Origin: an uncultured Pseudomonadota bacterium
Lineage (GTDB): Bacteria; Babelota; Babeliae; Babelales; RVW-14
NCBI GenBank assembly: GCA_964534555.1
Contig: CAZHRK010000003.1
Location: 1-64,000, forward strand
Reading direction: 5' to 3'
Length of the DNA stretch: 64,000 nt
Shown piece after piece: positions 18,096 to 40,947 of the stretch. Numbering within the stretch: the stretch's first letter is position 1; each line of letters begins with the position of its first letter. A model generated the notes under the pieces. That model was not told the origin of the DNA. It did no database searches and was given only the letters and a program-made list of their open reading frames with translations. The translations under genes and the position numbers were made by a program.

Positions 18096-19976
18096 ATGTT
18101 CATAACACAGTTTAAGCAGGCAAAAAAGTCAGCTCGTTTATTGCTTGCATTAGTTACATGCTCTTTTATTTCATTAGCCGCAATAACAGCGCAAGATGCA
18201 GATGATCTTGAGCTTGTTAGCTGCCGCCACAAAGAGGGTAAGGCTCTTGCTGATGTGATTGCTCAACCAGCAACATCACTTGGCCGCGCTGCGCTAGCCT
18301 CTTTTATTATTTCACCAACAGACGATGCACATGTTATCAGCGTTCGTCAGGACTTTATACGTCGTATGATCAGCCAGCAAAAGGGTGTATCATCAAGCCT
18401 GAGAGATGTAGCGGCGTTAGATGTGGCGCTTTCTGCTTTTGTTTTAGCTGGCTCTGAGAGCAAGATTGAACAAGAAGCTGTTAAAGAGTTTTTCTTTACG
18501 AGTAATTTTGCACTAACGCATGATCTTGTTGGCAGCCTTAATACAAATAAGAGTGCTTTGACAATTAAGCACTTATTGAGTCAAGCAGCGCTCTTTAATC
18601 CGCTTATTGAGTATCTTTTGATTCACGTTGGGGTTGATAACCTTAAGGGGGTTTTGCAGAAGATGGGTATTAGAATAAAATCCCCATGTTCAAAGTGTGC
18701 CAAACACCGTAAGAAAGAAGAAGTCATAAGTGAATCAAAAAATACGCATGATCATGATCATGCGCATCATCATGATGACAATAAACACGAAAAGCCTCAC
18801 TCAGAGCATAAAAATCAATCTGGTCATAGCAATCATTCTGATCATAGTGGTCATAACCACAATAAGCTTATGATCGAGAGTGTCATAGATAATTCAGTAA
18901 AAGCTTTTCATATTGCGCACCTGATGTTGCTTCCTGCTACTTTCTACGAAATGTATAATCAGCTTGATCATAAAAATAAGCTTGTTCAGGCTGTTCATTT
19001 GCAAGTTATCCTGATTGCTCAAGCGCTGCGCAAGATTTCTAGTATTGCGCTTCCGCTTATGCAGGGATTAAGCAAGCAAGAGCTTGAAGTATTAGGACTT
19101 CAGCCTCTAAGCACGATTTTTGGCGATTCTGATGCGGCGCGTGAGTGTCAGCAGAACCTTATCGAAGCTGCTTTTAGTCAAAATGCTTCAACACTTATGA
19201 TGGGCACAACGCTTAAAGCGTATAAGACTATTGTTGATCATAAAGATCTTATTAAAGATGCGTTTACAAGCTTTGGTGCGCTTGATGCGTTTGCAAGTAT
19301 CGCTACAGAAGTTGAGTCTGGTAGATTAGTATTTGCAGATCAAGCAGAAGATGTTCTTGAGGCTGTTGGTTTCTACAATCCACTGGTTGAGAAAGATCAA
19401 GCTGTTCTTAATTCATTTTCATCTGTAGATGCGCCGCACCTAGCGCTTGTTACTGGTCCTAATGGCGCTGGTAAATCTACTATCATTAAAGCGCTTACCT
19501 ATAACGTGGTATTGGCCCAGTCTCTTGGTGTTGCTGCTGCAAAAAGCTTCAAAGCTCCTTTGTACAGCGATATTATTGCATACCTTACCGTGAGCGATGA
19601 TCTTACTCATAATATGTCACGATTTGTTGCTGCTTCTATGCGCGCAGATGATGTTCTTGAGCGTTTAGATGCTGCCCAAAAAGCAGGCAAGCGTGTATGG
19701 TGCTATATTGACGATGCTCTGTTTGAGGGAACCACGCCAGAAAAGCGCGCGCTTTTGAGTGTTGATTTTATTAAATCAATTACCGGCAATACTGTTGCCC
19801 AAACATTTGTCATTACGCATTTGGCTGAAGTTGCGCAGCTTGCTCAAGACAAGGCTCGTTATAATGCGCTTCATGTGCCAGTTATTAAAAGTGAGCAGGG
19901 CACTGTAGTCAGCTCGTATGAGCTTGCTCAAGGCATCAGCCCTGAAACTGATCCAACAATTCTTGTGATCAGATAA
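18096..19976 (+). CDS. signal-peptide protein with His-rich segment and C-terminal MutS domain-V-like ABC ATPase
   Basis: Start MFITQFKQAKKSARLLLALVTCSFISLAAITA (signal/anchor) and HDHDHAHHHDDNKHEKPHSEHKNQSGHSNHSDHSGHNHN tract. C-terminal LALVTGPNGAGKSTIIKAL, SRFVAASMRADDVL, YIDDALFEGT and FVITHL align colinearly with MutS ITGPNMGGKST / STFMVEM / DEIGRGT / FATHY. Confidence 0.6.
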   Translation: MFITQFKQAKKSARLLLALVTCSFISLAAITAQDADDLELVSCRHKEGKALADVIAQPATSLGRAALASFIISPTDDAHVISVRQDFIRRMISQQKGVSSSLRDVAALDVALSAFVLAGSESKIEQEAVKEFFFTSNFALTHDLVGSLNTNKSALTIKHLLSQAALFNPLIEYLLIHVGVDNLKGVLQKMGIRIKSPCSKCAKHRKKEEVISESKNTHDHDHAHHHDDNKHEKPHSEHKNQSGHSNHSDHSGHNHNKLMIESVIDNSVKAFHIAHLMLLPATFYEMYNQLDHKNKLVQAVHLQVILIAQALRKISSIALPLMQGLSKQELEVLGLQPLSTIFGDSDAARECQQNLIEAAFSQNASTLMMGTTLKAYKTIVDHKDLIKDAFTSFGALDAFASIATEVESGRLVFADQAEDVLEAVGFYNPLVEKDQAVLNSFSSVDAPHLALVTGPNGAGKSTIIKALTYNVVLAQSLGVAAAKSFKAPLYSDIIAYLTVSDDLTHNMSRFVAASMRADDVLERLDAAQKAGKRVWCYIDDALFEGTTPEKRALLSVDFIKSITGNTVAQTFVITHLAEVAQLAQDKARYNALHVPVIKSEQGTVVSSYELAQGISPETDPTILVIR

Positions 19977-20925: not shown

Positions 20926-21132
20926 ATACGTTCCTTACGGTAAATCAATAATTTCACATCTGTGAAAAGAAAAATTCTAGCGCTAAAATGCAGAGTAATA
21001 AAGCTCATAATGATTCATTTTTTAAATTTATATCGGCTGGATCGTGCCTTTCTGAGCCTATTGACGCGCTTTGTTTTTCTGATATATTATTCAGCAAGTT
21101 ATATCCATAAGCCCGTATTCGAAAGGGAGCTT

Positions 21133-21690
21133 ATGTTCGACGTATTGATCAATCTTTTTAATCAAAATATTTATACTCAGTCATTAGCTGTCGGTGTGAT
21201 GCTTGTAGCGCTGCGGGTTGTGTCTTTTTTTATCGGTGGGTTGTTTCATACTCATGATGATTTTTCTCACCATGATTTTGGGCACGATGATTATACCCTT
21301 TCACTGCAGACCCTTGCTGCTTTTACACTTGGGTTTGCTCTTGGTGGACTTATTGCGCAGCACTTTTTACTTGATGGGTTCAATCAGTCGCTGATTGCCT
21401 TGGTAAGTGGGTTTGTGTTAATGCGGATCCAGTTTTCTGTTGTTCGTGGTCTTGGCAGGCTTGCGAGTAATGGTTCTGAGTTTAAACTGAGCAGAGTGGT
21501 AGGCCTTGGTGGAGAGGTATATCTTTCGATTCCACCATCTGGTCTAGGTAAGATTCTTGTCACAGTTGATCATGTTGTCCGCGAAATCGATGCAGCATCT
21601 GCTGACGGTAGTCCTTTGCAAACGATGACAAAAGTTACTGTTGTTGATGTTTCGTCCTCTGGCCATGTTCTTGTAAAAGCTTTGCAATAA
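21133..21690 (+). CDS. NfeD-like membrane protein (OB-fold C-terminus), partner of flotillin
   Basis: Start MFDVLINLF (RBS aagggag). Two TM segments, a His/Asp-rich loop HTHDDFSHHDFGHDDY and a C-terminal beta-rich GKILVTVDHVVREID..VTVVDVSSSGHVLVKAL typical of short NfeD. Lies immediately upstream of the flotillin gene. Confidence 0.55.
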   Translation: MFDVLINLFNQNIYTQSLAVGVMLVALRVVSFFIGGLFHTHDDFSHHDFGHDDYTLSLQTLAAFTLGFALGGLIAQHFLLDGFNQSLIALVSGFVLMRIQFSVVRGLGRLASNGSEFKLSRVVGLGGEVYLSIPPSGLGKILVTVDHVVREIDAASADGSPLQTMTKVTVVDVSSSGHVLVKALQ

Positions 21691-21737
21691 GTAAAAAATC
21701 GCACAATTCAATTAACATTTTCATAAAGGAGATGACA

Positions 21738-23090
21738 ATGGAAATGATCATCTTGGGGATTCTGACGGTCGGTATCCTTATGTTTTTTACAACCATGTTT
21801 TGGTTGTCCCACTTCCACCGCTGCCCATCAAACAGAATTTTAGCTGTTTATGGTCGACTTCAAGGTAATAGCTCTGTGAAGTGTTACCATGGTGGTGGTG
21901 TTTTCGTGTGGCCTATTATTCAGGATTATGCATATATCGATTTAACACCGATGACACTGCATATTCCTCTTAAATCAGCCTTATCTATGCAAAATATTCG
22001 TATCAACGTACCAAGTACTTTTACTGTTGCTGTTGATACAACGCCAGAGGCGATGACTAACGCTGCAATTCGTCTGCTTGGTTTATCACGCAAAGATATT
22101 GAGCTTATGGCGAGCGAGATTATTATTGGTCAGCTTCGTTTAACGGTTGCGTCTTTAACAATTGAAGAAATCAATCAAGATCGTGAACGATTTTTACTTG
22201 CGATTCGCCAGCACATTGAGCCAGAGCTACGTAAGATTGGCTTAGCGCTCCTGAACGTTAATATCACAGATATTACCGATGAGTCTGAATATATTGAGAG
22301 CATTGGCCGTAAGTCTGTTGCTACTGCACTTAATCAGGCAAAAATCGATGTTTCAGAGCAAGAGAAGCGTGGTGATATTGGTAAAGCACAAGCTGAACGA
22401 GATCGAAAAGTCCATGTTGCAACCTTTACCGCTGACGCAGTAGAGGGTGAGAATGAATCTCGCGCTAAGATTGCCCAATTTAATGCGCAGCTTGCTATGC
22501 AAGAGGCTGCATCTGCAATGCAGTCTGAGATCGCGCATCAAAACGCTCAGGCTCAGATTAATACAGCAAAAAGCCTTGCAGAAGCAAAGCGCCTTGAGGC
22601 TGAACAACTCGTACCAAAAGAGATTGAGAAGCGCCGCATTGAGATAGAGGCTGAGGCAACAGCGTCTCGAGCTCGCCTTGAAGCTGAGGGGCAAGCAGCT
22701 GCGCACTTGGCTATCAAAGAGGCTGAGGCTCAAGGTGTGCTACGAGTGCTTAAAGCGAAAGCTGATGGGTACAAAGAGCTTATTAAAGCCTGTGATAACA
22801 ATCCGCAACAAGCAGCGACGATGCTCCTTGTTGAAAAGCTTGATGAGATGGTTAGGTTGCAAGCTGAAGCTATCAAGAACATCAAGATTGATAAAATCAC
22901 CGTATGGGAAAACGGTGGTGGTGAAAAGGGTAGCTCAACGGCAAATTTCATGAGCGGGCTGGTTAAATCGCTCCCACCCCTCCATGATATTGCTGCTCTT
23001 TCAGGCATCGACTTACCTGAGTATCTTGGCAGTGTTTCTGCTGATAAGCAGCGTACAGATACAAAACCAGCGACCAAAAGCACGCTTTGA
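21738..23090 (+). CDS. flotillin-like SPFH/band-7 protein
   Basis: N-terminal TM, SPFH domain, long EA-rich coiled coil (AEQLVPKEIEKRRIEIEAEATASRARLEAEGQAAAHLAIKEAEAQ); start either 21732 or 21738 (RBS aaggag). Confidence 0.8.
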   Translation: MEMIILGILTVGILMFFTTMFWLSHFHRCPSNRILAVYGRLQGNSSVKCYHGGGVFVWPIIQDYAYIDLTPMTLHIPLKSALSMQNIRINVPSTFTVAVDTTPEAMTNAAIRLLGLSRKDIELMASEIIIGQLRLTVASLTIEEINQDRERFLLAIRQHIEPELRKIGLALLNVNITDITDESEYIESIGRKSVATALNQAKIDVSEQEKRGDIGKAQAERDRKVHVATFTADAVEGENESRAKIAQFNAQLAMQEAASAMQSEIAHQNAQAQINTAKSLAEAKRLEAEQLVPKEIEKRRIEIEAEATASRARLEAEGQAAAHLAIKEAEAQGVLRVLKAKADGYKELIKACDNNPQQAATMLLVEKLDEMVRLQAEAIKNIKIDKITVWENGGGEKGSSTANFMSGLVKSLPPLHDIAALSGIDLPEYLGSVSADKQRTDTKPATKSTL

Positions 23091-23216: not shown

Positions 23217-24824
23217 ATGGTTTTTAATAAGCTTCTTATTTTTATGCTCATGGTTTGTCATCAGCTTTTACAGGCTGGTGTAGAGCTGCAAGTTTCTGAT
23301 AAAACAGTAAGTCATGAAGAAGCTGCTTATACTTTGCGCCGTAAAAAACGTATTGATGAATCATTTGCCAAACAGTTTGGTCTTGAGTCCTCATGGCGCC
23401 ATTACTTAGTTGGTACAAAAGCGCCTCGTGTTGCCCTCTGCTTTAGTGGTGGTGGGTGCCGCGCTATGTTGCAATCATTAGGTGCGCTTAAAGCAGCGCA
23501 GAATAATGGCTTACTAGACCTGACCACTTACATGTCGTCACTTTCTGGCTCAACATGGGCATTAATGCCATGGCTTGCATCAGACAAAACGCTTGATGAG
23601 TATATTTCATACATCCAAAAACGCCTGAGCATTTCTGTTGCATCACACTTGTATACTATTTTGACAACGAATAGTGATAAAATTAAATCCTTAAAAGGCC
23701 GCACAGATGCTGGGCTTGAGCTGAATGATATTTACGCAAGCTTATTGCTGAGCATTACGCTTAGGCATAGTGTCCATAATCCGTTTGATGTAACGCTTGC
23801 AGACATTGCTAAAAAGCGTTTTGCGCCAGAGTGTAGCGCTGATGTTCCGTATCCTTTTGCAACTGCAGTCTCAGGTGGGTCCAAGCTACACCATCATTGG
23901 TTTGAGTTTTCACCGTTTTCATTTGGACACTCAACAATCGGCCATATTCCATCAAATTGCTTGGGTAATACCTTCGTTAACGGTATTGGGGTAAAACAAC
24001 ACGCACAGCCAAAATTAGCCTATCTTATGGGGATGTGGGGAAGCGCTTATGCCGTTGATGGTTTGCGCCTTCTTGTTGAGCTTGGTTTTGGTTATAACCC
24101 GTCAAAAAATTTAGTTATAAACACCATAAAAAATATTATGCCATCAATACTGACCGGCGATGTGCTGGCTGATTATCTTGATGACGCACGTTTTAATCTT
24201 TTGCTTGATAAAAACCATTTTGCACCAGCGGTTAGAAACCCATTTTTTGCTAAAAAGAAGCCTGGCTTTATAAACCATTATTTTGGTAGCCAGACTATTG
24301 AGCTTGCTCATGTTGATGAGCTTCCGCTTGTTGATGGTGCTCATGACATGCTTTGGGCTGCATCAATAGATGGCACACAAAATCGTGGCTTTGCTATGAA
24401 CTTAGGTATTGTTCCGCTTTTGCACCCGAGCAGGGAAGTTGATGTCATCATAGCAATCGATAGCTCAGGAGACCTTGATGGTGCGCCATCATTAGTCGCT
24501 GCTCAGCTCAGAGCGCAGGAGCTTGGATTACCTTTCCCTAAAGAAAAAGTACTAGAGCAGTCAGCGGGGACAAAAATTCGTGTTTTAGAGGGTGACGCAA
24601 ACACTCCAACCATTATTTATGTTCCGTGCTTGCCTGTGGTAGAAGAGTTATCTCGAGTAAATTCTGCGCAGCCTGATTCTGATTACGCAGCAACAACGAA
24701 TTTTAGTTATTCACATGAGCACTCAGCGTATGTCATAAAACGAGGACAAGTTGCTCTTGAGGTTGCAATGCCAGTCATTAAGCACGTGATCTTTGATCGC
24801 TATAAGAAGTCAACGTACTTCTAG
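23217..24824 (+). CDS. secreted cytosolic-PLA2-type (PLA2_B / lysophospholipase catalytic domain) lipase
   Basis: Signal peptide. LCFSGGGCRAMLQSLGALKAAQNNGLLDLTTYMSSLSGSTW matches the cPLA2 GGGxR(A)M...G(I/L)LD..TY..GLSGSTW block, with oxyanion Arg and nucleophile Ser in GxSGS. Confidence 0.7.
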   Translation: MVFNKLLIFMLMVCHQLLQAGVELQVSDKTVSHEEAAYTLRRKKRIDESFAKQFGLESSWRHYLVGTKAPRVALCFSGGGCRAMLQSLGALKAAQNNGLLDLTTYMSSLSGSTWALMPWLASDKTLDEYISYIQKRLSISVASHLYTILTTNSDKIKSLKGRTDAGLELNDIYASLLLSITLRHSVHNPFDVTLADIAKKRFAPECSADVPYPFATAVSGGSKLHHHWFEFSPFSFGHSTIGHIPSNCLGNTFVNGIGVKQHAQPKLAYLMGMWGSAYAVDGLRLLVELGFGYNPSKNLVINTIKNIMPSILTGDVLADYLDDARFNLLLDKNHFAPAVRNPFFAKKKPGFINHYFGSQTIELAHVDELPLVDGAHDMLWAASIDGTQNRGFAMNLGIVPLLHPSREVDVIIAIDSSGDLDGAPSLVAAQLRAQELGLPFPKEKVLEQSAGTKIRVLEGDANTPTIIYVPCLPVVEELSRVNSAQPDSDYAATTNFSYSHEHSAYVIKRGQVALEVAMPVIKHVIFDRYKKSTYF

Positions 24825-25845: not shown

Positions 25846-26008
25846 ATAACCCCTTTCTGATCATTTCATCCTAAGGACTGCCCATAACTTGTCGCAAGAG
25901 ATTGACATGACTTGTAGATAAAATATTTCGATTTGGTTGATTAAATTACTAAATGAGTGTAATTCATGGTGGACAATACAATACTGGAGTTCTAGGGTGA
26001 GGTTTTAC

Positions 26009-27817
26009 ATGAGACACAGAAATACTCTAAGGTTGGTAATAGCGTCTTTTTTCCTGCTATCAAGTAATGCGTACGGTGCTCTGGCATTTGAAGCTGTCAA
26101 AGGTGCTGTCTCTGCACTTGGTGGCGTAGTTGCTAGTGGTGCTGCTCGTCTTGCAGCAGGTGGTAGGACCTCATCAGGTCTTCCGCGTTTTGTAGCAGCG
26201 GAAGCTGATGCGCTTATTGAAAGCTGTCAATTTGACCGCTTGAGTAGCTACGTGCTTCAATTTGTTGATGCTGGCTCTCCAGCATACAGCGAAGATGCTG
26301 TAGCATGGCTTAGAGCTGTTAGAGTAGTGCCATGTTTGCCGATTAAGTATCTTTATACTCGAATGATATTTGGGCAAAACTCTCCTAAAAAAGAAGATGT
26401 TTTAGATGCGCTTGTTGATGTGCAGGCATCTTTATTATTATTTGTTGTTGATGCGTATATTTGCCAAAACGCAGGGCTATTTCCAGAGGTTAGCCCTTTT
26501 GCTGATGCGTATACAAAAGCAAGAACATCACTCTTGGCTCCTTGGGCTGGGTTAGTTGAATTTTTGCAAAACAAATTCTTTACACGTTTTATTGATTCAA
26601 AATACCCGCAGCTGGCTTCTTTGCTAGCGGAAAAAGAAAATGTAGATAACGAGTTTTCGTTTACGCAAACATACGCACGGCTTTGTGAGTATATCGCACG
26701 TCTTTCTGATGAAGATTTGTATATTCCCCCACAAGTGATGTGCAAAGTATATTTGCCTTCAGTAGCAGGGTGGTCTCATACAGGTAAGATGGCTGCAGAT
26801 GCATTATCAGCTATCAGAGTTGCAGATGTTGGGCTTCATTTTGGTAATAGTGAGCCTGATATACTTGCTCGTCTAAGATCAGGGATAACAGATCAAGCGC
26901 GTTTCAGGGGTTTTCGTGCATTGTTTACAAAAGCCACACTACGAATGTTTAGAGCTATTGGATCATGGGGTGATTTACTAACAACAAGGATTCCTGATCG
27001 CATGGCTGTTGCGCTTGACCGAGCTGAGTACAAAGAAACGCTGTTTCCGCTGCCAGACCGTGCTGCTGTGGTGGATGGTGGCGCCGCTGTTAGTGGTACA
27101 TTGTCATCACGCTTGAGTGCTGCTGGCAGTGAACGTCGTGGCCGTGCGCCATCAAGTGGTCTCACTGCTGCCGAGCCTCCTGCAGCCACAGGCTCTGTTG
27201 GTAGAGCTCCAGTCCCACATAACCCATTAAAAAAGACAATCGGCGGAGCTGGTTTACAAAGTGCTTATTCTGGGGCATTTGCAGGGCTGCCACCAGATGG
27301 ATATACATCTGGTGAAACGTCTGATGATGATGGCAGTGGGTCTGACAGCGATACTGCTGAAGGATCTCCTGTTGCTGCAGCTGCTCGCTCAACAAGATCT
27401 GTGCCAGCCTTAGCTGCCCCTTTAGCTCGTGGTGCTGCCCGGGGTGGTGGTCGCTTGGTCGACGCTAGTGGTAGCGCTGCTGTTGGTGATTTAGAGGCTT
27501 CGCTTGAAGCGCTTACGTTACATTCTGCGTCAGTGCCTACAGCTGAAGCTAATCCTATGGCTTCTAGCATGATGGTTGCGGCAGGAGATCTTGCTGGGTT
27601 GCGTGATGCTCGTGCAGATGTTCATGCGCTTACACCTACATCTGAGGGTGATGAGGCTGCCGATGGTGCAGGTGGTGAGGGTGCTGATGACAGTGGGACA
27701 TTGAGTGCTGCTGCGTCAAGCGTGGTTGATAAACCAGGAGATGGTCATGCTGGAGATGGCCATAGAAGTGGCGGTGGTGGCTCTGGCAAAAAGGGTAAAA
27801 AAAACAAGAAAAAGTAA
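26009..27817 (+). CDS. hypothetical secreted protein with long Gly/Ala/Ser/Asp-rich disordered C-terminal half and polybasic tail
   Basis: Start MRHRNTLRLVIASFFLLSSNAYGA (RBS agggtgagg); C-terminus ...GGGGSGKKGKKNKKK. Confidence 0.5.
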   Translation: MRHRNTLRLVIASFFLLSSNAYGALAFEAVKGAVSALGGVVASGAARLAAGGRTSSGLPRFVAAEADALIESCQFDRLSSYVLQFVDAGSPAYSEDAVAWLRAVRVVPCLPIKYLYTRMIFGQNSPKKEDVLDALVDVQASLLLFVVDAYICQNAGLFPEVSPFADAYTKARTSLLAPWAGLVEFLQNKFFTRFIDSKYPQLASLLAEKENVDNEFSFTQTYARLCEYIARLSDEDLYIPPQVMCKVYLPSVAGWSHTGKMAADALSAIRVADVGLHFGNSEPDILARLRSGITDQARFRGFRALFTKATLRMFRAIGSWGDLLTTRIPDRMAVALDRAEYKETLFPLPDRAAVVDGGAAVSGTLSSRLSAAGSERRGRAPSSGLTAAEPPAATGSVGRAPVPHNPLKKTIGGAGLQSAYSGAFAGLPPDGYTSGETSDDDGSGSDSDTAEGSPVAAAARSTRSVPALAAPLARGAARGGGRLVDASGSAAVGDLEASLEALTLHSASVPTAEANPMASSMMVAAGDLAGLRDARADVHALTPTSEGDEAADGAGGEGADDSGTLSAAASSVVDKPGDGHAGDGHRSGGGGSGKKGKKNKKK

Positions 27818-29505: not shown

Positions 29506-31446
29506 ATGATGGTACGTAATTTAAAGCTGGTTCTTTTGTGTGCATTTTTTGCACATGGATTTATGTATCCAGCATCCTCTTCACGAGGGTTCTTTTCGTC
29601 GATTTTAGATTTTTTAGGTTATGGGACATCGTTTTTTTCTACTGATGCTTTAAGGCCAGAGCCTGTCGATGACTCGCTTGTTATTTCGTATGTCGGTAAT
29701 GAACCAGTCGGACATCCATTTAGTGTGTTACCGTGTCTCCAGCAAAGACAAAGAATCAAGTCAGGTGAGCTTGCCTTAAAAGATGCCTCTTATAACGGCT
29801 GGGAGTGCGGTTTTTACTCTATTTATCACGCGCTCAAATCAGCAGGGCTGTATCCGGCGCCATCTGGTGCTGCCGGTGCTGCTAGTGCCGCTGCCGCAGG
29901 AGGAGCTGCCGCAGGTGCGCCAGCTGCAGGAAGATTTGATTGCCATGAGTATCGAGCTTTTTGGGATAACTTTGTTCAAAAAGACCGCGACTTGCGTGCA
30001 CGATACCCTGGCTGCAGAGTTCTTGATCCAACAGTTTATTCATTTGGAGCGCGCAGTACTGGTGGGATAGAGTTGCCAAATAGTGAGATTTTAAAACTTA
30101 TAGTTGGCTTAACGATTTTACCTGAGGCCACCCTCGATACGTACTATCGTAATCGATCAGACCTCGGACCTGCTGATGGTAGATTTCAAGAGTTGTGGGC
30201 ATCTGTACAAGCTGCTCACCCATCACTTTTTATTATAGACAAAGATCTTATTTTAGGACTTGCTGCAGGTGAGGATGTCCAACCAATTCTCCAATTAATG
30301 CGTGATCAAGGTGATGCCCTGCGTGTTATTATCTCTACTGGAGCTCATTGGATCTGTTTTGGGAAGATTCCTGGCGAGCAGGGGCTTTATTGTTTTGATT
30401 CGTATCAGACAGCTGGATTGGGTCGTGTTGGCCGAGATGTTACAGACTTAGGTGAGTTGCTTGCAGCGCGATTGTTTAGGCCTGCAGATGCTGCTACTCA
30501 TGCATTAGTTGATCGTATGAGGGAAGCGGCGCTTATGCCTCAAATGCAAGCGCTTTGGGATGCGGCAGAAGATAAAAGAAAAAAAGATGAAGCACTTAAG
30601 ACTGCTCTAGCAGCGTCTTCTGGTCCTGCTGTTTCTTTAGTAAGTGATGCGCCTGAAGAGCGTACACTAGCTTCAAAGCGCTCACGCGCTGAAGCTAATC
30701 TTGAAAAAGTTTCCCGACCTAAGGCAAAGCGATCACGTAAACTACAAACAACTATCCCGTTTTCTGTTGTTGAAACAGAGGCATCAGCTAAAGGAAATAC
30801 TCATGTATTTGCTGCAATTGCAGCCTACAGAGAGCTTATGGAAGATGATGCTATTACGCCTGATTCTATCTGTGCTGCTTTTGGCACCAGTGTTGATGCT
30901 TTATCTAAATATGATGCGCAAACCATTTTGGAAATGATTGATCACGAACATGATGTAATCATTTTTAATCAGCTGTTTCATGGTAACATTTCTCATGTTG
31001 TAAGAAATCGTTCATGGGTTGGAAAAATTCACCAACTACGACAAGCGCTTCGTTCTGGAGAGCGTGCTGTTTTTATTATGCCTGTAGCCGCTGATCATTT
31101 GGTTTGCTGTGTTCTTGATGAGGATACTACAACAGGTGAGATGGAAATTAAAATTTTTGATCCGCTTAATCCAACCGCAGCAGATGGTACGGTACTTGAT
31201 CCTATTTACACCGTCTTACAAAACCTATTATTACGCGACAAGTTTGTTACCCTTGACTCATTTGACTCACTAAACGCAGCATTAAAAAGAATTAAGCCAG
31301 GTGCGACATTGTCAGCAGCAAAAAGGGTTCTTGGTAAGACTAAATCAGAGCTTTTTTCAGCAGATGAATTGCGCGCACTCCTGCGTTCAGTTAATCCAGA
31401 AGAACTCGTTATAGACTCTGATTCATCAGAGAGCGATGACGAGTAA
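29506..31446 (+). CDS. secreted two-domain protein; N-terminal putative Cys/His papain-fold hydrolase (UCH/OTU-like)
   Basis: Signal peptide MMVRNLKLVLLCAFFAHG. NGWECGFYSIYHAL resembles the UCH Cys box NxCGx3(LI)(LI)HA(LI) and the OTU DGNCxFY; distal GAHWICFG His box. Ala/Gly-rich linker, Lys/Glu-rich central region, acidic C-terminal DSDSSESDDE. Paralog of 6097..7050. Confidence 0.5.
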   Translation: MMVRNLKLVLLCAFFAHGFMYPASSSRGFFSSILDFLGYGTSFFSTDALRPEPVDDSLVISYVGNEPVGHPFSVLPCLQQRQRIKSGELALKDASYNGWECGFYSIYHALKSAGLYPAPSGAAGAASAAAAGGAAAGAPAAGRFDCHEYRAFWDNFVQKDRDLRARYPGCRVLDPTVYSFGARSTGGIELPNSEILKLIVGLTILPEATLDTYYRNRSDLGPADGRFQELWASVQAAHPSLFIIDKDLILGLAAGEDVQPILQLMRDQGDALRVIISTGAHWICFGKIPGEQGLYCFDSYQTAGLGRVGRDVTDLGELLAARLFRPADAATHALVDRMREAALMPQMQALWDAAEDKRKKDEALKTALAASSGPAVSLVSDAPEERTLASKRSRAEANLEKVSRPKAKRSRKLQTTIPFSVVETEASAKGNTHVFAAIAAYRELMEDDAITPDSICAAFGTSVDALSKYDAQTILEMIDHEHDVIIFNQLFHGNISHVVRNRSWVGKIHQLRQALRSGERAVFIMPVAADHLVCCVLDEDTTTGEMEIKIFDPLNPTAADGTVLDPIYTVLQNLLLRDKFVTLDSFDSLNAALKRIKPGATLSAAKRVLGKTKSELFSADELRALLRSVNPEELVIDSDSSESDDE

Positions 31447-35485: not shown

Positions 35486-35572
35486 TGGTGCAAGAGGGGG
35501 GACTCGAACCCCCATCCTCTTACGAGGGCTAGCTCCTAAGGCTAGTGCGTCTACCAATTTCGCCACTCTTGC
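35486..35572 (-). tRNA. tRNA-Leu (anticodon TAG)
   Basis: GCAAGAGTGGCGAAATTGGTAGACGC...CTTAGGA anticodon loop, long variable arm, TTCGAGT T-loop, encoded CCA; 87 nt. Confidence 0.85.
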
Positions 35573-35666
35573 ATTAAAACATTTGCTCTCCACTCTACAC
35601 AGCATCGGCAGGCGGGGCAACATTTTTAGTTGACCGTAGTATGTTCGAAAAATGTTAAAGATCATC

Positions 35667-35742
35667 TGGTGGGTCGCCAGGGACTCGAACCCTGAACCTG
35701 CAGATTAAGAGTCTGTCGCTCTACCGATTGAGCTAGCAACCC
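35667..35742 (-). tRNA. tRNA-Lys (anticodon CTT)
   Basis: GGGTTGCTAGCTCAATCGGTAGAGC...CTCTTAA loop...GGTTCGAGTCC...GCGACCCACCA, 76 nt cloverleaf. Confidence 0.85.
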
Positions 35743-35866: not shown

Positions 35867-38800
35867 CTATTTCTTTTTAGCGGCTTTCTTTGACGCTGCT
35901 TTTTTAGCCGCAGGCGCACCTTTTGTTGCTTTTTTAGGCGCTGTTTTTACTACTGTTTTTGCCGGTGCCTCTGCTTCTGATCTCTTTTCAGCTGCGCTAG
36001 CAGCTGGTGCTTTATCTTCAGCTGCTTCTTTTGCTGGGGCTGGTTTTTCATCGCTTTCATCAGGCACTGCCGCTTTAGGCGCAGCAACTTTCTTACCGCT
36101 GAGCAGCCTATTATTAAGCGTGATATTTCTGAATGTCACCGGTGTTTCCCAGCAGCTTAGTCCTATCCAGCTTATGCCTTCAATAGGATATGGGTCCGTC
36201 CATGTGAGCGTTGTGCCATTAGCAGCCTGAATCGTTATTGTTCCGCTGCGTAGTGTGATAGTGATTTTAGTTGGTTGGAATGCATTCAGCACACCACTTG
36301 CAAATGCTTTCTTTGTGACGGATTTAAATGCTTTGCCAAGGCTTTGTAGTCTCATCGCAAGACAGCTGTTATCAAATGCTCCGAAATGTAATTCATAAAG
36401 TTCTTTGCCTGAATTGCGCACCATGCTGCTATCATCAGCAAAACAAACCATAGCGTCTTTAAGTCCCTCGACTTCAAAGCTCAGTGAGAGTTCATTTGTT
36501 GTGTCGCTTGTTACTGGTAGCCAGATATACTCACCATAACATTTATCAATTCGTAGTGAGCTGCTTGTTCTTAAAATCTGGTGAGCCATTTTGTTTGCCC
36601 AAACATAAACAACCTCACGTTGGTCTGATCCTGCGGGAATAAGGAAGCTGTTATTAATCGCTGATAGTAGCAAGTTAAGCATGCTGTTGATAACGCGTGG
36701 GTTTGGTGTAGCTGAGTCATAAAGTGTTGGGTAGCTCGTGATCAAAAGCTCAATTATGTCATTTATTTTTTGAGCTACAAAATCAGAAACAACGTATGAG
36801 TGCGTTAGCAGGTAGATCACGTCTTGTGTCATAACGACAAGGCGCTCGAAGTTCTCTGGCGTAGTTGGTTGGAGTGAGCTTGTTGCTCTCAGTGTTGCCT
36901 CAGCTGTCTTACGATTATTTCTTGCATCCTCTGGCACCATCGCTTCTCCCAGTGGGATGCGTTCTGGTGCGTCGACAAACACATAGCTATCGTGGCTTTT
37001 GAATGCAAATTTTGCTTGTCCAGCGATAATGTTAGCATTAAATTTTGCTTGTGCGGCAGCGGTTTCTAATTCAAGCGCGCGCTGTTGTGCTGCAGCAGCA
37101 GATTCAGCGCCAGAGAGATCTCGTTGCGCGGCTGCGACATATGCTTGACTTGACATGCCTGCTGTAATAATAGCTGCAGTACCAGATGCGGCGGCAAATC
37201 CGGCACCCACACCGGCGATAATAATATTGTCACTCATTGCCAGCGCGCCACCAACCTTAGCACCCACCGTTGCGGTTGTATCTGCAATTTTAAGGAGCGA
37301 GTCTCCTTGAGCTCGACTCACATCACCTTGGGCGCGGGCGAGTTCTTTAAGTCTCTCACCATCAGCGCGCATGATGTCTGCTTTTTGTCGCTCAAGTTCT
37401 GCTGAAGCAGCAGCCTGCACGATCATCTGTTTGATTTTTATTTCTTGTGGGTTTTCAGGTGCTTTTGTCCAATCAAGCTTTGGCGCACCATCTGGCATAA
37501 CCGTGAGTGTAAAGTAATACAGTGCGCCTTGTTGCGGTGTTGCTCCGGCATAAAACGTGGTGTTGTTTACCATGTCGTCAAATTTTACAGACTCGTTTAC
37601 CTGAGAGACTCTGTATGAAAAAGGAAGGATGATGGTGATATCGCCTTCATAAATATTACTGTCGCTTGTAGCTGTTTTGCGTGCGTATTGGGTTGAGCGC
37701 TCGAGTATGAGCTGAACCGCATCAGCTATTTCAACTTCTTTAATAAGCGCATCAGGGGCATCGGTTGTAAATCCAACTTCTCTGATATCTGTAAGTGGGT
37801 TTACATCTTGGTAGACAAATGATGTATCGTTTCCGATATTGCCGTACCCAATAATAAAACGACCATTATTGTAGCTCACCCAAGGCGTAATCTCGCTGTC
37901 TTTTGACAGGTAAAGACCGTCTATTTCAACAACATCGCATGATCCGCGCTGGACGTACGCACCTTTAATGAATTTATAAATTACAATTTTCTTAAAATCA
38001 TCATCACCAAAGGTAATCTTGTAATGTGGTTTTGTAAGGTCTTGCCCTTGTGCCAAAATGAGGGAAGTTTTACCGCTTGCTTTTAGCGTAAAGCCAAGGG
38101 AGCCTTGATCGGCTATTCTGAGTGGTGTTTTGGTCCAAAGTGCCGCGCTTCCTCCAGCGGGAACAGTAAGTGTTTCAGTGCCTTCGTAATAAATACGATC
38201 CTGTGGTCTTGTGACGATTGGTCCATAAATTTGTATTTCTGCAAATTCAACAAGCGTTTTATTTGAGGCAAAGCCTATGCGGTTTACAAGTGGCATTGGA
38301 TCGTCTGTGCGATACGCCATAAAGACGTTCTCGCCCGGTAGCCCCATCCCGACAAGGATCAGTCCGTTGTCGTATGTCACCCAGTATGGTGTAAAGTTTC
38401 CAGGAGAAACAGCTGCTAGCGGGTTTTCTTTAACATCAATAACACACACGACATCGTCAACTGGTTCGTTGTTTTGTATTGTGCGCTGAATGATTGATGC
38501 TTGGGTGTTTTTAGCCCCACCAATAACAACTTTGTAGTCAAATGTATTATTCACCTCGTGGCCAAGGACAACCTGAATATCACCTTGATCATCAGCTTTT
38601 GCAACAAATCCAACGGTGCATCGATTATTAACTGGGAACGATTCATTAAGCCATGCTGCGCCTTTTCCAAGAAGCGGTTGCAGCTTAAGTGATGCTCCTT
38701 TTTCAAGCTTGATTGATGTTTGCGCTGATCCTGAAACTGTCGGTCTTTGGCGTACTGGAATTTCAAAATCAACAGAGTCTTGTGGTGGCACATTCCCGCC

Positions 38801-40822
38801 GTTTCCAAGGTCAATAATTTCAAACGCTACAGCAGAAAGATCCGATGGATCAAGAGCGCTGCCATCAGCATTTGTGGTAACTGCTATCGTAAGGTCACGC
38901 ATTTCTGTGCGCCCCGGAATAACTTTTTTAGTAATTCCCGCGCTGGTAGCAATTGTTGATAGCCATTGCTCTGATTTGTTCCAGCCTTTACCGTTCCAGG
39001 TGTAGAGCATTTGTTCTGCTGTATCGATCATATAAACCATCTCGTTGTTGCGAACCGAGATTTGTTTGATCTGTGGATTGCCTGCTGGAGCATCAACAAC
39101 AGCCCAGCTCTTAGCGTCGTAGTCATAGCGCCAGACACGGTTTTTATCATCAACTGCCCATACAGCGAGCTCTTCTGATGCAGACATAGTCACAATTTTT
39201 GCGCCTTGTGGCGATTGTGCTTTCCAGCTTTCACCGTTGTAGCTATAAATCGCGCCATCAACACCAAGGCCCCACATTTCACGGGGTGATATAATTGAAA
39301 TCTCTTTAAAACCAGGGCCTTTATCAAGCGGTGCCCAGCTATTATTTTGTCTCAAATAAGGCACGCCATCATTATCGAGCGTTACTGTTTGCCCCGCGCT
39401 GTTGACATCGACGTATTTAAATTTGAATGAAGATGGAATTTGCGTCCAGGTGCCGTTTTCAAATTTAAAGAGGCTTCCTTCCTGCGCTATTGCGTAAGCA
39501 ATTTCAGCCGATTGGAGCGCGAGTGATTGGAAGTAAATAAATGGCTCTTCATCAAGTACAGGATAGCTATTAAGCGTTGCAAGTGATCCTTCATCAGCGC
39601 CCGCACGAACGCTTAAAATACCGTTTTCGTTTAATAGTTTAAAAACCTGTTTAATGCTCATCTCATGACGAATTCTTATTTGTCCGTCGTCATCGGCAGT
39701 CCACCAGCCAAACTTGTTTGCTGTTCTGTCCCAATAATCACGACGTGCTGCGCCCCAGTTCCATGAGCTGTCTTGGCCATCATCTCTAAGGCTTTGAAGT
39801 GAAAAATCTGTGCAGTAGCGGAGCGGTTGGTTTGCAGGTGTTTTATTTATATCTTCATTATTCCATGTTGTTCTGAGCCATAGGCGCATTAATGTTCTGC
39901 CATCACCATTATTTGCAGGTTCTCTGTAACAAATAATATCCGCGTCGTTTTCACGAAATACAAAAAAGTTATTAAGGCCAGCATTTCTAAAATTAATATC
40001 ATGCCTGCTCAGCACTGCTTGTCCGTTTGTTTCGCTCTTGCCACCAAAAGTTACTGTATATTGAGCGTTTGGAGCGATATTACGAGCAATATCACCTTTA
40101 AGCGGTCTGTCATCACCATCATGGCGGTAGAATCGTTTTCTTCTTTGTGAGTAAATCGTTACTTTGTCACCGTATTTTACTTGCGGTTTATACACACCCC
40201 AAAGTGATGGTGAACGCAGAATTTGTTCGGTATCTTTTTCTACTTTAACCTCGACAGTCCCTTGATAAGGCATTAATACACCGCTCAAGCGATTTTTGAG
40301 ATGGCATTTGCCCAGATCTGAGCCAAGCAGTTCCCAGTGGGCGGCTTTGTCTTCATCATCGTCAAATGCTGTTGATGGGAAGCCTACAGGAGAGCGATTG
40401 CCTGGTGCGTACTGGCATGTAAGATCTTTTGTTATCGTGCTCTCAATCCCAATCCAATCTCTAAGTGGTGGTGATGAGAGCTTTCTTACGATGGTGAACT
40501 CTGTGGCTTTGTCGCTCGCATCGTTTGCATCAGCAACAAAGATCCATTTTTTATCGGCGTTTAACCTTGCTGCATAGTACTTTCCGCTTGCAATATGGCG
40601 TATGCGTACTGTTGTTCCATAAGGAAGGCTGTCATGTAATGTTTTTTCAAATGCGATTGATGCCGGATAAGGTGAGCCGTTTCTAATTCTATCAAGTACT
40701 GCATAACCAAATTTAGGCAGCTCAGCAAGAATGTCGGGAGTTTGAGTTGCGAATTTATTATTACTTTGCGGTATGAGCAAAAACGCTACACACCACAATA
40801 GCTTGAAGATATAATTTTTCAT
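35867..40822 (-). CDS. giant (~1650 aa) secreted protein with tectonin/tachylectin-type beta-propeller repeats, a duplicated ~130-aa domain and a histone-H1-like Lys/Ala/Pro tail
   Basis: Start MKNYIFKLLWCVAFLLIPQS (signal). W-x-G...VWGVN-like repeats (WAPLDKGPGFKEISII..MWGLGVDGAIYSY, WKAQSPQGAKIVTMSA..VWAVDDKNRVWRY, WAVVDAPAGNPQIKQISV..VYMIDTAEQMLYTW). Internal repeat ...FTPYWVTYDNGLILVGMG.. / ..ITPWVSYNNGRFIIGYG... C-terminal AAPKAAVPDESDEKPAPAKEAAEDKAPAASAAEKRSEAEAPAKTVVKTAPKKATKGAPAAKKAASKKAAKKK. Confidence 0.7.
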   Translation of the reverse strand: MKNYIFKLLWCVAFLLIPQSNNKFATQTPDILAELPKFGYAVLDRIRNGSPYPASIAFEKTLHDSLPYGTTVRIRHIASGKYYAARLNADKKWIFVADANDASDKATEFTIVRKLSSPPLRDWIGIESTITKDLTCQYAPGNRSPVGFPSTAFDDDEDKAAHWELLGSDLGKCHLKNRLSGVLMPYQGTVEVKVEKDTEQILRSPSLWGVYKPQVKYGDKVTIYSQRRKRFYRHDGDDRPLKGDIARNIAPNAQYTVTFGGKSETNGQAVLSRHDINFRNAGLNNFFVFRENDADIICYREPANNGDGRTLMRLWLRTTWNNEDINKTPANQPLRYCTDFSLQSLRDDGQDSSWNWGAARRDYWDRTANKFGWWTADDDGQIRIRHEMSIKQVFKLLNENGILSVRAGADEGSLATLNSYPVLDEEPFIYFQSLALQSAEIAYAIAQEGSLFKFENGTWTQIPSSFKFKYVDVNSAGQTVTLDNDGVPYLRQNNSWAPLDKGPGFKEISIISPREMWGLGVDGAIYSYNGESWKAQSPQGAKIVTMSASEELAVWAVDDKNRVWRYDYDAKSWAVVDAPAGNPQIKQISVRNNEMVYMIDTAEQMLYTWNGKGWNKSEQWLSTIATSAGITKKVIPGRTEMRDLTIAVTTNADGSALDPSDLSAVAFEIIDLGNGGNVPPQDSVDFEIPVRQRPTVSGSAQTSIKLEKGASLKLQPLLGKGAAWLNESFPVNNRCTVGFVAKADDQGDIQVVLGHEVNNTFDYKVVIGGAKNTQASIIQRTIQNNEPVDDVVCVIDVKENPLAAVSPGNFTPYWVTYDNGLILVGMGLPGENVFMAYRTDDPMPLVNRIGFASNKTLVEFAEIQIYGPIVTRPQDRIYYEGTETLTVPAGGSAALWTKTPLRIADQGSLGFTLKASGKTSLILAQGQDLTKPHYKITFGDDDFKKIVIYKFIKGAYVQRGSCDVVEIDGLYLSKDSEITPWVSYNNGRFIIGYGNIGNDTSFVYQDVNPLTDIREVGFTTDAPDALIKEVEIADAVQLILERSTQYARKTATSDSNIYEGDITIILPFSYRVSQVNESVKFDDMVNNTTFYAGATPQQGALYYFTLTVMPDGAPKLDWTKAPENPQEIKIKQMIVQAAASAELERQKADIMRADGERLKELARAQGDVSRAQGDSLLKIADTTATVGAKVGGALAMSDNIIIAGVGAGFAAASGTAAIITAGMSSQAYVAAAQRDLSGAESAAAAQQRALELETAAAQAKFNANIIAGQAKFAFKSHDSYVFVDAPERIPLGEAMVPEDARNNRKTAEATLRATSSLQPTTPENFERLVVMTQDVIYLLTHSYVVSDFVAQKINDIIELLITSYPTLYDSATPNPRVINSMLNLLLSAINNSFLIPAGSDQREVVYVWANKMAHQILRTSSSLRIDKCYGEYIWLPVTSDTTNELSLSFEVEGLKDAMVCFADDSSMVRNSGKELYELHFGAFDNSCLAMRLQSLGKAFKSVTKKAFASGVLNAFQPTKITITLRSGTITIQAANGTTLTWTDPYPIEGISWIGLSCWETPVTFRNITLNNRLLSGKKVAAPKAAVPDESDEKPAPAKEAAEDKAPAASAAEKRSEAEAPAKTVVKTAPKKATKGAPAAKKAASKKAAKKK

Positions 40823-40947
40823 AAGAAAGCCTTTATGGATCAGGAGCTTTGATTGATTAATTTGTCTCAATGTAAGAACCTGCTGCACTGTAAATCAAGA
40901 ATATGGTATGCTCATGGCCTAAAGTTTAGTAGGGCCTCTTAGGTAAG

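Follow-up and report, generated by a model that had tools for sequence, protein, structure and literature searches.

The gene at positions 18096..19976 (+) of the window analysed here, a 64-kb stretch at the start of contig CAZHRK010000003.1 from an uncultured bacterium of the Babelales, encodes a 626-residue protein that combines two domains of the DNA-mismatch sensor MutS with a predicted signal peptide and a histidine-rich loop. The reading runs from an ATG to a stop codon, which is included in these coordinates, and an identical protein (P0001) is present on three contigs. Our best reading, tentative and given slightly less than an even chance, is that of a Sec-exported ATP switch of the MutS fold whose lever tips bind metal. 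The data show the domain architecture, homology to the MutS core, conservation within a family, features of a signal peptide, purifying selection and the taxonomic setting; we infer export, cleavage, dimerization, metal binding, slow hydrolysis and the cellular target. The protein belongs to a family of MutS paralogues, so far undescribed, in Dependentiae-type intracellular bacteria, and the members of this family would be exported by Sec.

The ATP-binding cassette (ABC)-type ATPase, domain V of MutS, occupies residues 411-626 (19326..19973, +), as delimited by Pfam, matches to PDB sequences and hhalign. Pfam MutS_V (PF00488) covers residues 451-616 with 55.8 bits (cut-off 30.2; E = 7.5e-15), and the protein ends 10 residues past this match. 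The PDB sequences matched are those of MutS2, MutS and MSH2, with MutS2 the best (1.6e-9). A preliminary description, made by reading the DNA, had assigned such an ATPase, and all the motifs it quoted are there. Walker A is GPNGAGKST at residues 454-462 (19455..19481, +; TGPNGAGKST at 453-462), with Lys 460 invariant, and Walker B is WCYIDD at residues 535-540 (19698..19715, +), with Asp 539 invariant and IDDALFEGT spanning residues 538-546. Conservation and hhalign place the invariant Ser 508 (19617..19619, +) at the position of the signature-like 'STF' of MutS, at the head of SRF..ASM (residues 508-515), and the H-loop is Thr 574-His 575 (19815..19820, +; ITHL at 573-576), its histidine again invariant. 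Across 36 representatives of the family, the base for the column, loop and signal-peptide counts given below, Lys 460, Asp 539, Ser 508, Arg 516 and Thr 574-His 575 are conserved in 31-36. Therefore, from its conserved Walker A, Walker B, signature and H-loop residues, the protein should have retained nucleotide binding.

The catalytic glutamate is a different matter. Canonical MutS has an invariant D685-E686 pair, whereas here Asp 540 occupies the position of the glutamate. This 'DD' form of Walker B is found in 27 of the 33 His-type representatives counted for it, versus 'DE' in 105 of 114 representatives of a sister group that lacks the His tract. Degenerate sites with a Glu-to-Asp change occur in other ABC ATPases, and by analogy with them the protein would hydrolyse ATP slowly and behave in a switch-like manner.

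The preliminary description had called the N-terminal 400 residues unrelated to MutS. Judged by profile comparison and conserved columns, the region is instead a diverged MutS core/lever domain III. Alignment by hhalign of a profile of 19 family members with one of 14 canonical MutS proteins gave a probability of 99.9 and an E-value of 4e-31 over 503 columns, pairing residues 26-617 of the target with residues 257-761 of the 850-residue MutS P0011, a stretch that opens with the first residue of domain III and closes where domain V ends. Pfam MutS_III (PF05192) spans residues 37-403 of the target at a sub-threshold 28.8 bits, and the relative P0029 passes the same model with 44.1 bits against the cut-off of 34.1; by this core/lever domain the protein is a member of the MutS superfamily. 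The description had also considered that the N-terminal domain might prove to be a diverged MutS core and the protein hence an ordinary MutS paralogue. The former holds, but the architecture and model scores set out below speak against the latter.

The first half of domain III comprises residues 33-192 (18192..18671, +), as delimited by hhalign, Pfam MutS_III, conserved columns and the helices of an AlphaFold2 (AF2) model. It opens with D37-L38-E39-L, followed by T60..G63 and R84-Q85, the hallmark with which the MutS core and the mature N-terminus of the family begin (RDLELfs…T.T..G…L…L..P..D…L..RQ..I..L), and its lever helix at residues 168-189 carries a near-invariant Glu 172 (34/36). The second half, residues 258-410 (18867..19325, +), was defined by the AF2 model, hhalign and conservation; it includes a long lever helix of 68 residues (255-322) and the conserved residues His 275, Gly 370 and Asp 397. 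The AF2 model has a predicted local distance difference test (pLDDT) score of 78 and a predicted template modelling score of 0.73. Compared with known proteins, the target scored 29.6 with MSH2 over 407 residues, 28.8 with MSH6 (414), 28.5 with Bacillus subtilis MutS2 (360), 28.3 with MSH3 (396), 27.2 with Taq MutS (390), 26.3 with Thermotoga maritima MutS2 (366) and 23.5 with Thermus thermophilus MutS2 (352). The best other ABC ATPase scored 11 or less, and matches to the ATPase alone typically align ~160 residues in this comparison.

The remaining MutS modules are missing, in agreement with the preliminary description, which had seen no mismatch-binding (I), connector (II) or clamp (IV) domain. 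Neither MutS_I nor MutS_II of Pfam matches the target, whose core motif begins at residue 37, directly after the signal peptide. Between the start codon and the core there is no room for domains I and II, and the sequence upstream of the gene is non-coding. Pfam MutS_IV has no match either, and the position of the clamp is taken by a disordered 65-residue His/Cys loop. The target also lacks the C-terminal helix-turn-helix; the hhalign alignment stops at residue 761 of the 850 in P0011.

The apex loop extends over residues 193-257 (18672..18866, +), is rich in His, Cys and Asp, and is disordered in the AF2 model (pLDDT < 50). At its start is a CxxC motif, C198-S-K-C201 (18687..18698, +), ahead of the His tract HDHDHAHHHDDNKHEKPHSEHKNQSGHSNHSDHSGHNHN at residues 218-256 (18747..18863, +). 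This tract, which had likewise been noticed earlier, holds 14 His; the binomial probability of finding 14 among 40 residues at the His frequency of the window (2.4%) is ~5e-13, and the next most His-rich segment of any open reading frame (ORF) in the window has seven. In the model, the order is helix 168-189, disorder at 193-257 and helix 255-322. The canonical clamp sits between the two lever helices (MutS_IV covers residues 418-511 of P0011), and hhalign places the loop at and beside this region. By topology, then, and mostly from the order of the helices, the His/Cys loop appears to stand in for the DNA clamp at the lever apex.

The composition of the loop is a property of the family. Loop length ranges from 15 to 80 residues (median 35) and the number of His from 5 to 23 (median 11), with HxHxH in 31 loops and HxHxHxH in 23. 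Every loop has at least one Cys and 31 have at least two; a vicinal pair (CxxC, CxC or CC) occurs in 19, CxxC itself in nine. The columns of His 220, 222, 224 and 226 are His in 29-35 representatives, and His 238, His 255 and His 275 are also conserved, as is Glu 172. In the target, part of the tract consists of short repeats (CATGAT five times, an 18-mer 1.9 times); tract length is thus lineage-specific, while the core and the richness in His and Cys persist across the family. Models of metal proteins give weak compositional matches within residues 196-256 (Zip, 0.019; SelP_N, 0.065; ZrgA, 0.056), and profile scans found no homology beyond composition to the His-rich metal binders considered, namely ZIP loops, ZrgA and the SelP N-terminus.

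The N-terminus has the features of a Sec signal peptide, as the preliminary description had suspected. The predicted peptide covers residues 1-32 (18096..18191, +) and reads MFITQFKQAKKSAR-LLLALVTCSFISLAAITA-QDADD, with a positive n-region (net charge +5), an uncharged h-region of 18 residues and a net charge of -3 thereafter. Small residues stand at -3/-1 in SLA|A and ITA|Q, so signal peptidase I would likely cut after Ala 28 or Ala 32. In this work signal peptides were called by explicit heuristic criteria of composition and charge. By these criteria, 33 of the 36 His-type representatives have a strongly hydrophobic N-terminal 10-mer, within an uncharged stretch of median 14 residues (range 10-26). 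The stretch is preceded by a mean net charge of +2.6 and followed, over the next 15 residues, by one of -1.8, and in all 33 the charge before exceeds that after. Between its end and the conserved DLEL motif lie a median of 18 residues. AxA-type sites are found in many family sequences (VQA|Q, ISA|Q, AVA|D, AWA|E, TSA|S). The AF2 model shows the N-terminus of the target as a separate helix of low confidence, and five proteins of the window taken as controls (GyrA, DprA, trigger factor, YebC and Maf) have no such segment. From these sequence features, we infer export through Sec and cleavage of the signal peptide.

Selection along the gene follows the same divisions. A strain variant, P0025, is 92% identical to the target, and the ratio of non-synonymous to synonymous substitution rates (dN/dS) between the two genes is 0.16. 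By region, in what is a single two-strain comparison with small counts per region, dN/dS is 0.08-0.11 in the core domain, 0.14 in the ATPase domain, 0.48-0.58 in the His tract and apex loop, and a near-neutral 0.81 in residues 1-32. The last value fits a signal peptide, because selection is relaxed there. The target is thus under purifying selection, and its regional pattern is what one would expect if a functional gene encodes a signal peptide.

The preliminary description had also allowed that the true start might lie further downstream. Three kinds of sequence evidence place the true start at ATG 18096. A GAGG Shine-Dalgarno motif lies at 18085-18088 (+), 7 nt 5' of the ATG, and G-rich motifs of this kind are also seen ahead of the ATG in the family members at four other loci (L012, L013, L015 and L016). 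In the leader, the T run at 18054-18058 has five T in the window versus six in the close strain L020, which shifts the frame 5' of the ATG; because this indel breaks the frame between strains, the stretch 5' of the ATG does not code for protein. The starts of family members fall at the equivalent of the target ATG. One gene caller lengthened the ORF of P0025 by 36 codons, to 662 residues, at this T5/T6 difference, and the extension is probably an annotation artefact.

A terminator-like hairpin, AGGGGAGCAATCGCTCCCCT, read as a palindrome from the sequence and followed by a T run, lies at 17874..17899 (+), 3' of the upstream Bax1-I gene, and is kept in the strain variant L020. The gene downstream of the target is convergent. 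With a terminator upstream of its own and a convergent gene downstream, the target gene looks monocistronic, which suggests that it is transcribed alone. Six genomic contexts of family genes had no shared neighbour and no conserved operon partner, and no client metalloenzyme is apparent in them. No shared upstream regulatory motif or Zur-like palindrome was found upstream of family genes; the palindrome ATGTTTCAGTCAGAAACAT of the window was considered as a regulatory site and rejected, as even the strain variant lacks it. The family gene sits among housekeeping genes, and some copies adjoin eukaryote-like proteins (UCH with a RanBP zinc ribbon, LRR, PLA2_B). At one such locus (L013, 6104-9891), two tandem UCH-domain genes, one with the RanBP-type zinc ribbon, stand beside the family member P0029.

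The family emerged only by exhaustive HMMER search. Word-indexed searching from the target returned the target, P0025 and distant canonical MutS proteins, and the same kind of search with the family alignment returned no family members, the candidates being MutS proteins that share the Walker A. In the exhaustive search, 26 representatives matched with E < 1e-30 and many others lay below that level, and the family comprises ~36 clusters. Its members have 580-650 residues, are 25-32% identical and are co-linear from residue ~16-36 to ~617. A common design is seen in all sequences inspected: a hydrophobic N-terminus, DLEL, a His/Cys loop in the same place, TGPNKAGKSS and DDSLFkGT. GyrA of the window shares 80-81% of its residues with its nearest relatives; among those that are named, identity is 80% for a Candidatus Dependentiae bacterium, 75-76% for a Candidatus Babeliales bacterium, 74% for candidate division TM6 and 71% for CP064957.1. 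This last, a complete genome of 1.45 Mb, carries a family member annotated as 'hypothetical protein' (P0239; QQR48616.1), and with GyrA only 71% identical it places the family in at least two deep Dependentiae lineages. We found no publication on a MutS paralogue with a signal peptide or a His-rich segment, or on MutS in Dependentiae.

In the Dependentiae parasite Chromulinavorax destructans, 44% of proteins are predicted to have signal peptides, Sec is thought to export them, and the set includes many proteins without an assigned function as well as presumed effectors directed at the host; this bacterium imports host ATP, and mutL/S are reported present (PMC6561590). In the 64-kb window, no second MutS-like gene and no mutL was found. 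Among its ORFs of at least 150 residues, 24 of 52 have a signal-peptide-like N-terminus and no further hydrophobic segment, a share that matches the predicted C. destructans secretome. The earlier suggestion that the protein might be an effector or a repurposed dimeric ATPase becomes more plausible for a conserved signal-peptide family in a phylum of intracellular parasites.

The closest relative of the His-type family is the sister group mentioned above, which is also uncharacterized and comprises proteins of 650-740 residues in more than 100 representative clusters (for example P0063 and P0051; loci L018, 8001-10043, and L019, 1450-3609). The two groups are homologous over their full length (hhalign E = 4e-101 over 567 columns), and 93 of 114 sister-group representatives have an N-terminal signal-like segment. 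The sister group differs from the target in lacking the His tract, in its 'DE' Walker B and its Walker A GPNAGGKS, in having ~60-90 extra residues behind the signal peptide, and in extending further at the C-terminus. It occurs in related bacteria with small genomes, and one of its loci comes from a lineage related to a carrier of the His-type gene (L017 versus L018: Rho 76% and TsaD 61% identical), and a sister-type protein may pair with a His-type protein. A hydrophobic segment in the middle of the sister-group protein was considered as a membrane hairpin at the apex and rejected, since it aligns with the amphipathic lever helix 'P..EHL..H' before the loop.

Among characterized proteins, MutS1/MSH (Escherichia coli and Taq MutS, human MSH2, MSH3 and MSH6) share with the target the core opening (DLEL… T.T..G … RQ), Walker A, the Walker B aspartate, the signature serine and the H-loop histidine. 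The target differs from them by the absence of domains I, II and IV and of the C-terminal helix-turn-helix, by an aspartate for the catalytic glutamate, by the signal peptide and by the His/Cys loop at the clamp position; the mutS1 model TIGR01070 scores 64.8 bits versus a cut-off of 641.7. MutS2, an Smr endonuclease and sensor of ribosome collisions (PDB 7vuf, 7qv3 and 9kce), resembles the target in lacking domains I and II and beginning with the core. However, the target has no clamp, KOW or Smr domain (profile scans for the latter two gave no match), it ends right after the ATPase, and it has a signal peptide and a His/Cys apex. The mutS2 model TIGR01069 gives 36.2 bits versus a cut-off of 400, and the MutS2/Smr-like function proposed in the preliminary description is not supported.

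Minimal architectures of this kind were placed in the subfamilies MutS3 and MutS4, whose function has never been studied, by Lin, Nei and Ma in 2007 (PMC2190696). The architecture of the target is compatible with MutS3 (MutSac with or without MutSd), a comparison made by architecture and profile. MutS3 and 'MutS-related proteins' of ~600 residues, such as P0015 from Tundrisphaera, have a similar size and domain V with or without domain III. The hairpin-bearing members of this set match the family with E = 1.5e-37, but only over 247 columns at the ATPase end, and unlike the target they have paired hydrophobic hairpins, a 'DE' site and no His tract. Two other identities were rejected: KamC, the lysine 5,6-aminomutase reactivase (NF052383; 33.3 bits versus a cut-off of 300, with no kam genes nearby), and an anti-phage defence ATPase, for which PADLOC returned only matches of P-loop length (20-40 residues, best E = 6e-6).

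Outside the MutS superfamily, two systems offer analogies for the apex. Rad50 has an ABC ATPase head and long helices, at whose apex a CxxC bridges two subunits through Zn2+ (PMC5093744, PMC6969161). The target likewise carries a CxxC and a His run at its lever apex, an analogy without homology to the hook, but its levers are much shorter, its apex is a long disordered His-rich loop and not a compact hook, and CxxC occurs in only 9 of the 36 members. HypB, UreG/UreE and COG0523/CobW-type proteins couple an NTPase switch to a flexible His(/Cys)-rich stretch that binds metal. The target shares a nucleotide switch and such a stretch with these metallochaperones, which are, unlike it, G3E GTPases of an unrelated fold that reside in the cytoplasm.

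Taken together, the features suggest the following mechanism. After cleavage of the signal peptide, the mature protein would consist of lever domain III and ATPase domain V, without mismatch, connector, clamp or C-terminal dimerization modules. It would form a head-to-head dimer like that of MutS, in which the conserved signature serine would act at a composite site spanning both subunits; this dimer would bind ATP and hydrolyse it slowly, as a switch rather than a motor. Motion of the levers, driven by the nucleotide, would join or part the two His/Cys tips, which would bind a divalent metal of the Zn2+ or Ni2+ class. The metal could serve for ring closure, as in the zinc hook of Rad50, or be captured and handed over, as by His-rich NTPase metallochaperones. 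The site of action would be the host cytosol or, in a parasite that imports ATP, the periplasm. ATP would be available in either place; in the periplasm it would be host ATP on its way to the inner-membrane transporters. Its role would lie outside DNA mismatch repair. In a more far-reaching version, MutS-fold ATPases would be placed outside the cytoplasm across the whole phylum, with a His/Cys apex in exchange for the clamp, and would form an ATP-gated, metal-bridged clamp in the host cytosol or an ATP-containing periplasm, perhaps as a heterodimer of a degenerate 'DD' subunit of the His type and a competent 'DE' subunit of the sister type; we consider this unlikely.

Several observations weigh against a secreted, metal-binding switch. 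The call of export rests on heuristics, and three of the 36 representatives have no hydrophobic N-terminus and start right at the core, although their starts may be mis-called. A normal periplasm offers an ATPase no obvious energy source, and the five scattered Cys of the mature protein are atypical for oxidized periplasmic proteins. Distant MutS-related proteins of similar length (P0005 and P0015-17) look membrane-anchored, through hydrophobic hairpins. The missing C-terminal helix-turn-helix stabilizes MutS dimers, and dimerization is not assured. At the apex, the confidence of hhalign is low and the replacement of domain IV is derived mainly from helix topology; the tract, partly made of tandem repeats and evolving fast (dN/dS about 0.5), resembles low-complexity spacers in both respects; and metal binding is deduced from composition only.

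Some of these observations would be accommodated by a membrane-anchored cytoplasmic ATPase, MutS3-like, with an uncleaved N-terminal anchor in the inner membrane and perhaps a task as metal sensor or chaperone. ATP is present in the cytoplasm, scattered Cys fit a reducing compartment, and the hairpin-bearing relatives, whose C-terminal ATPase matches the ATPase region of the family, provide a precedent. However, the family has a single hydrophobic segment, short and at the extreme N-terminus, and its likeness to the hairpin-bearing proteins is confined to the ATPase end. The charge difference across the segment predicts an N-in/C-out orientation with the body outside the cytoplasm, and AxA-type cleavage motifs are common, which leaves the anchored form distinctly improbable. 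A secreted protein might instead be an effector that acts on nucleic acid or on ribosomes, stalled or collided, in the host cytosol or organelles, its His tip being a contact to protein or RNA or a pH sensor. That MutS2 is the best PDB sequence match would suit such a role, as would the very large predicted secretome of an intracellular parasite, the eukaryote-like neighbours of some family members, and a sister group with a signal peptide and a competent 'DE' site. Yet all known modules for contact with DNA or ribosomes (domains I and IV, KOW and Smr) are missing, and the loop is acidic and His-rich and, in most members, poor in Lys and Arg. The gene also lies among housekeeping genes and is conserved in deep Dependentiae lineages, unlike effectors with fast turnover, and we regard this role as improbable.

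It is quite unlikely that the His tract is a neutral, low-complexity spacer that arose by slippage after loss of the clamp, on a generic exported or degenerate ATPase scaffold. The weak tandem repeats under part of the tract, the variable length of the loop, its dN/dS above that of the domains and its disorder in the AF2 model would all be expected of such a spacer. Against this, His and Cys are enriched at the same position in all 36 representatives, which are only 25-32% identical, and specific HxHxHxH columns are conserved. Moreover, the sister group shows that the loop can exist without His, which therefore does not simply come with the fold, and the tract is unique in the window. Finally, the signatures of MutS_V and MutS_III and the best NCBIfam matches, which are mutS1 models, might invite the view that the gene is an ordinary mismatch-repair MutS or MutS2, mis-annotated or truncated. 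The mutS1 and mutS2 scores lie an order of magnitude below their cut-offs, domains are lost with no space for I and II beside a non-coding upstream region, and the whole family has the architecture of the target. This agrees with the preliminary description, which had not taken the gene for an ordinary repair MutS, and makes the truncated-MutS explanation barely credible.

The surroundings of the gene include many orphan signal-peptide proteins, DUF2608 and lipopolysaccharide heptosyltransferase-like genes. The 242-residue membrane protein encoded at 20962-21690 (+) has a small patch of His and Asp (HTHDDFSHHDFGHDDY, around nt 21247), and directly 3' of its gene, at 21732-23090 (+), lies a Band_7/flotillin-like gene; the two resemble an NfeD-SPFH pair and lie 1 kb from the target. 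The signal-peptide protein encoded at 23217-24824 (+) has a PLA2_B (cPLA2-like lysophospholipase) domain (E = 1.1e-26). If the PLA2_B family is, as we take it to be, mainly eukaryotic, this protein would be a candidate for an enzyme directed at host membranes. An orphan signal-peptide protein is encoded at 25937-27817 (+), where the local GC fraction is 0.47 versus ~0.42 elsewhere; the C-terminal half of the protein is of low complexity, rich in Ala, Gly, Ser and Asp, and ends in a Lys run. At 29506-31446 (+), a signal-peptide protein of 646 residues without a Pfam match has His…Cys motifs in both halves (for example AHWICFG…CFDSY), from which it might be a duplicated fold resembling a cysteine protease or deubiquitinase. 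Further on, an ORF of 1673 residues with a signal-like N-terminus (35867-40888, -) adjoins tRNA-Lys and tRNA-Leu (35486-35742), and beside it is a divergent trigger factor (76 bits versus a cut-off of 180).

MutS is the textbook sensor of DNA mismatches, and the paralogues with assigned roles encountered here, MutS2 and (by its NCBIfam name) KamC, are not known to be exported. The family described here consists of MutS paralogues whose architecture is new and whose location is probably new as well. If the more far-reaching version above is true, this would be the first extracytoplasmic and the first non-nucleic-acid role for the MutS fold. A conserved family in which the lever-and-ATPase engine stands beside a secretion signal, with a His/Cys loop in exchange for the DNA clamp, would show that the engine lends itself to another job, such as metal handling or manipulation of the host. 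For the enzymology of MutS and ABC ATPases, it raises the question of what role is played by a natural family with a Glu-to-Asp catalytic site. The Dependentiae, parasites of protists, are a widespread phylum that has hardly been studied; nearly half of their proteome is predicted to be exported, and scarcely any of these proteins has an assigned function. Through its metal binding, ATPase activity and localization, the family would give a concrete, testable handle on this secretome.

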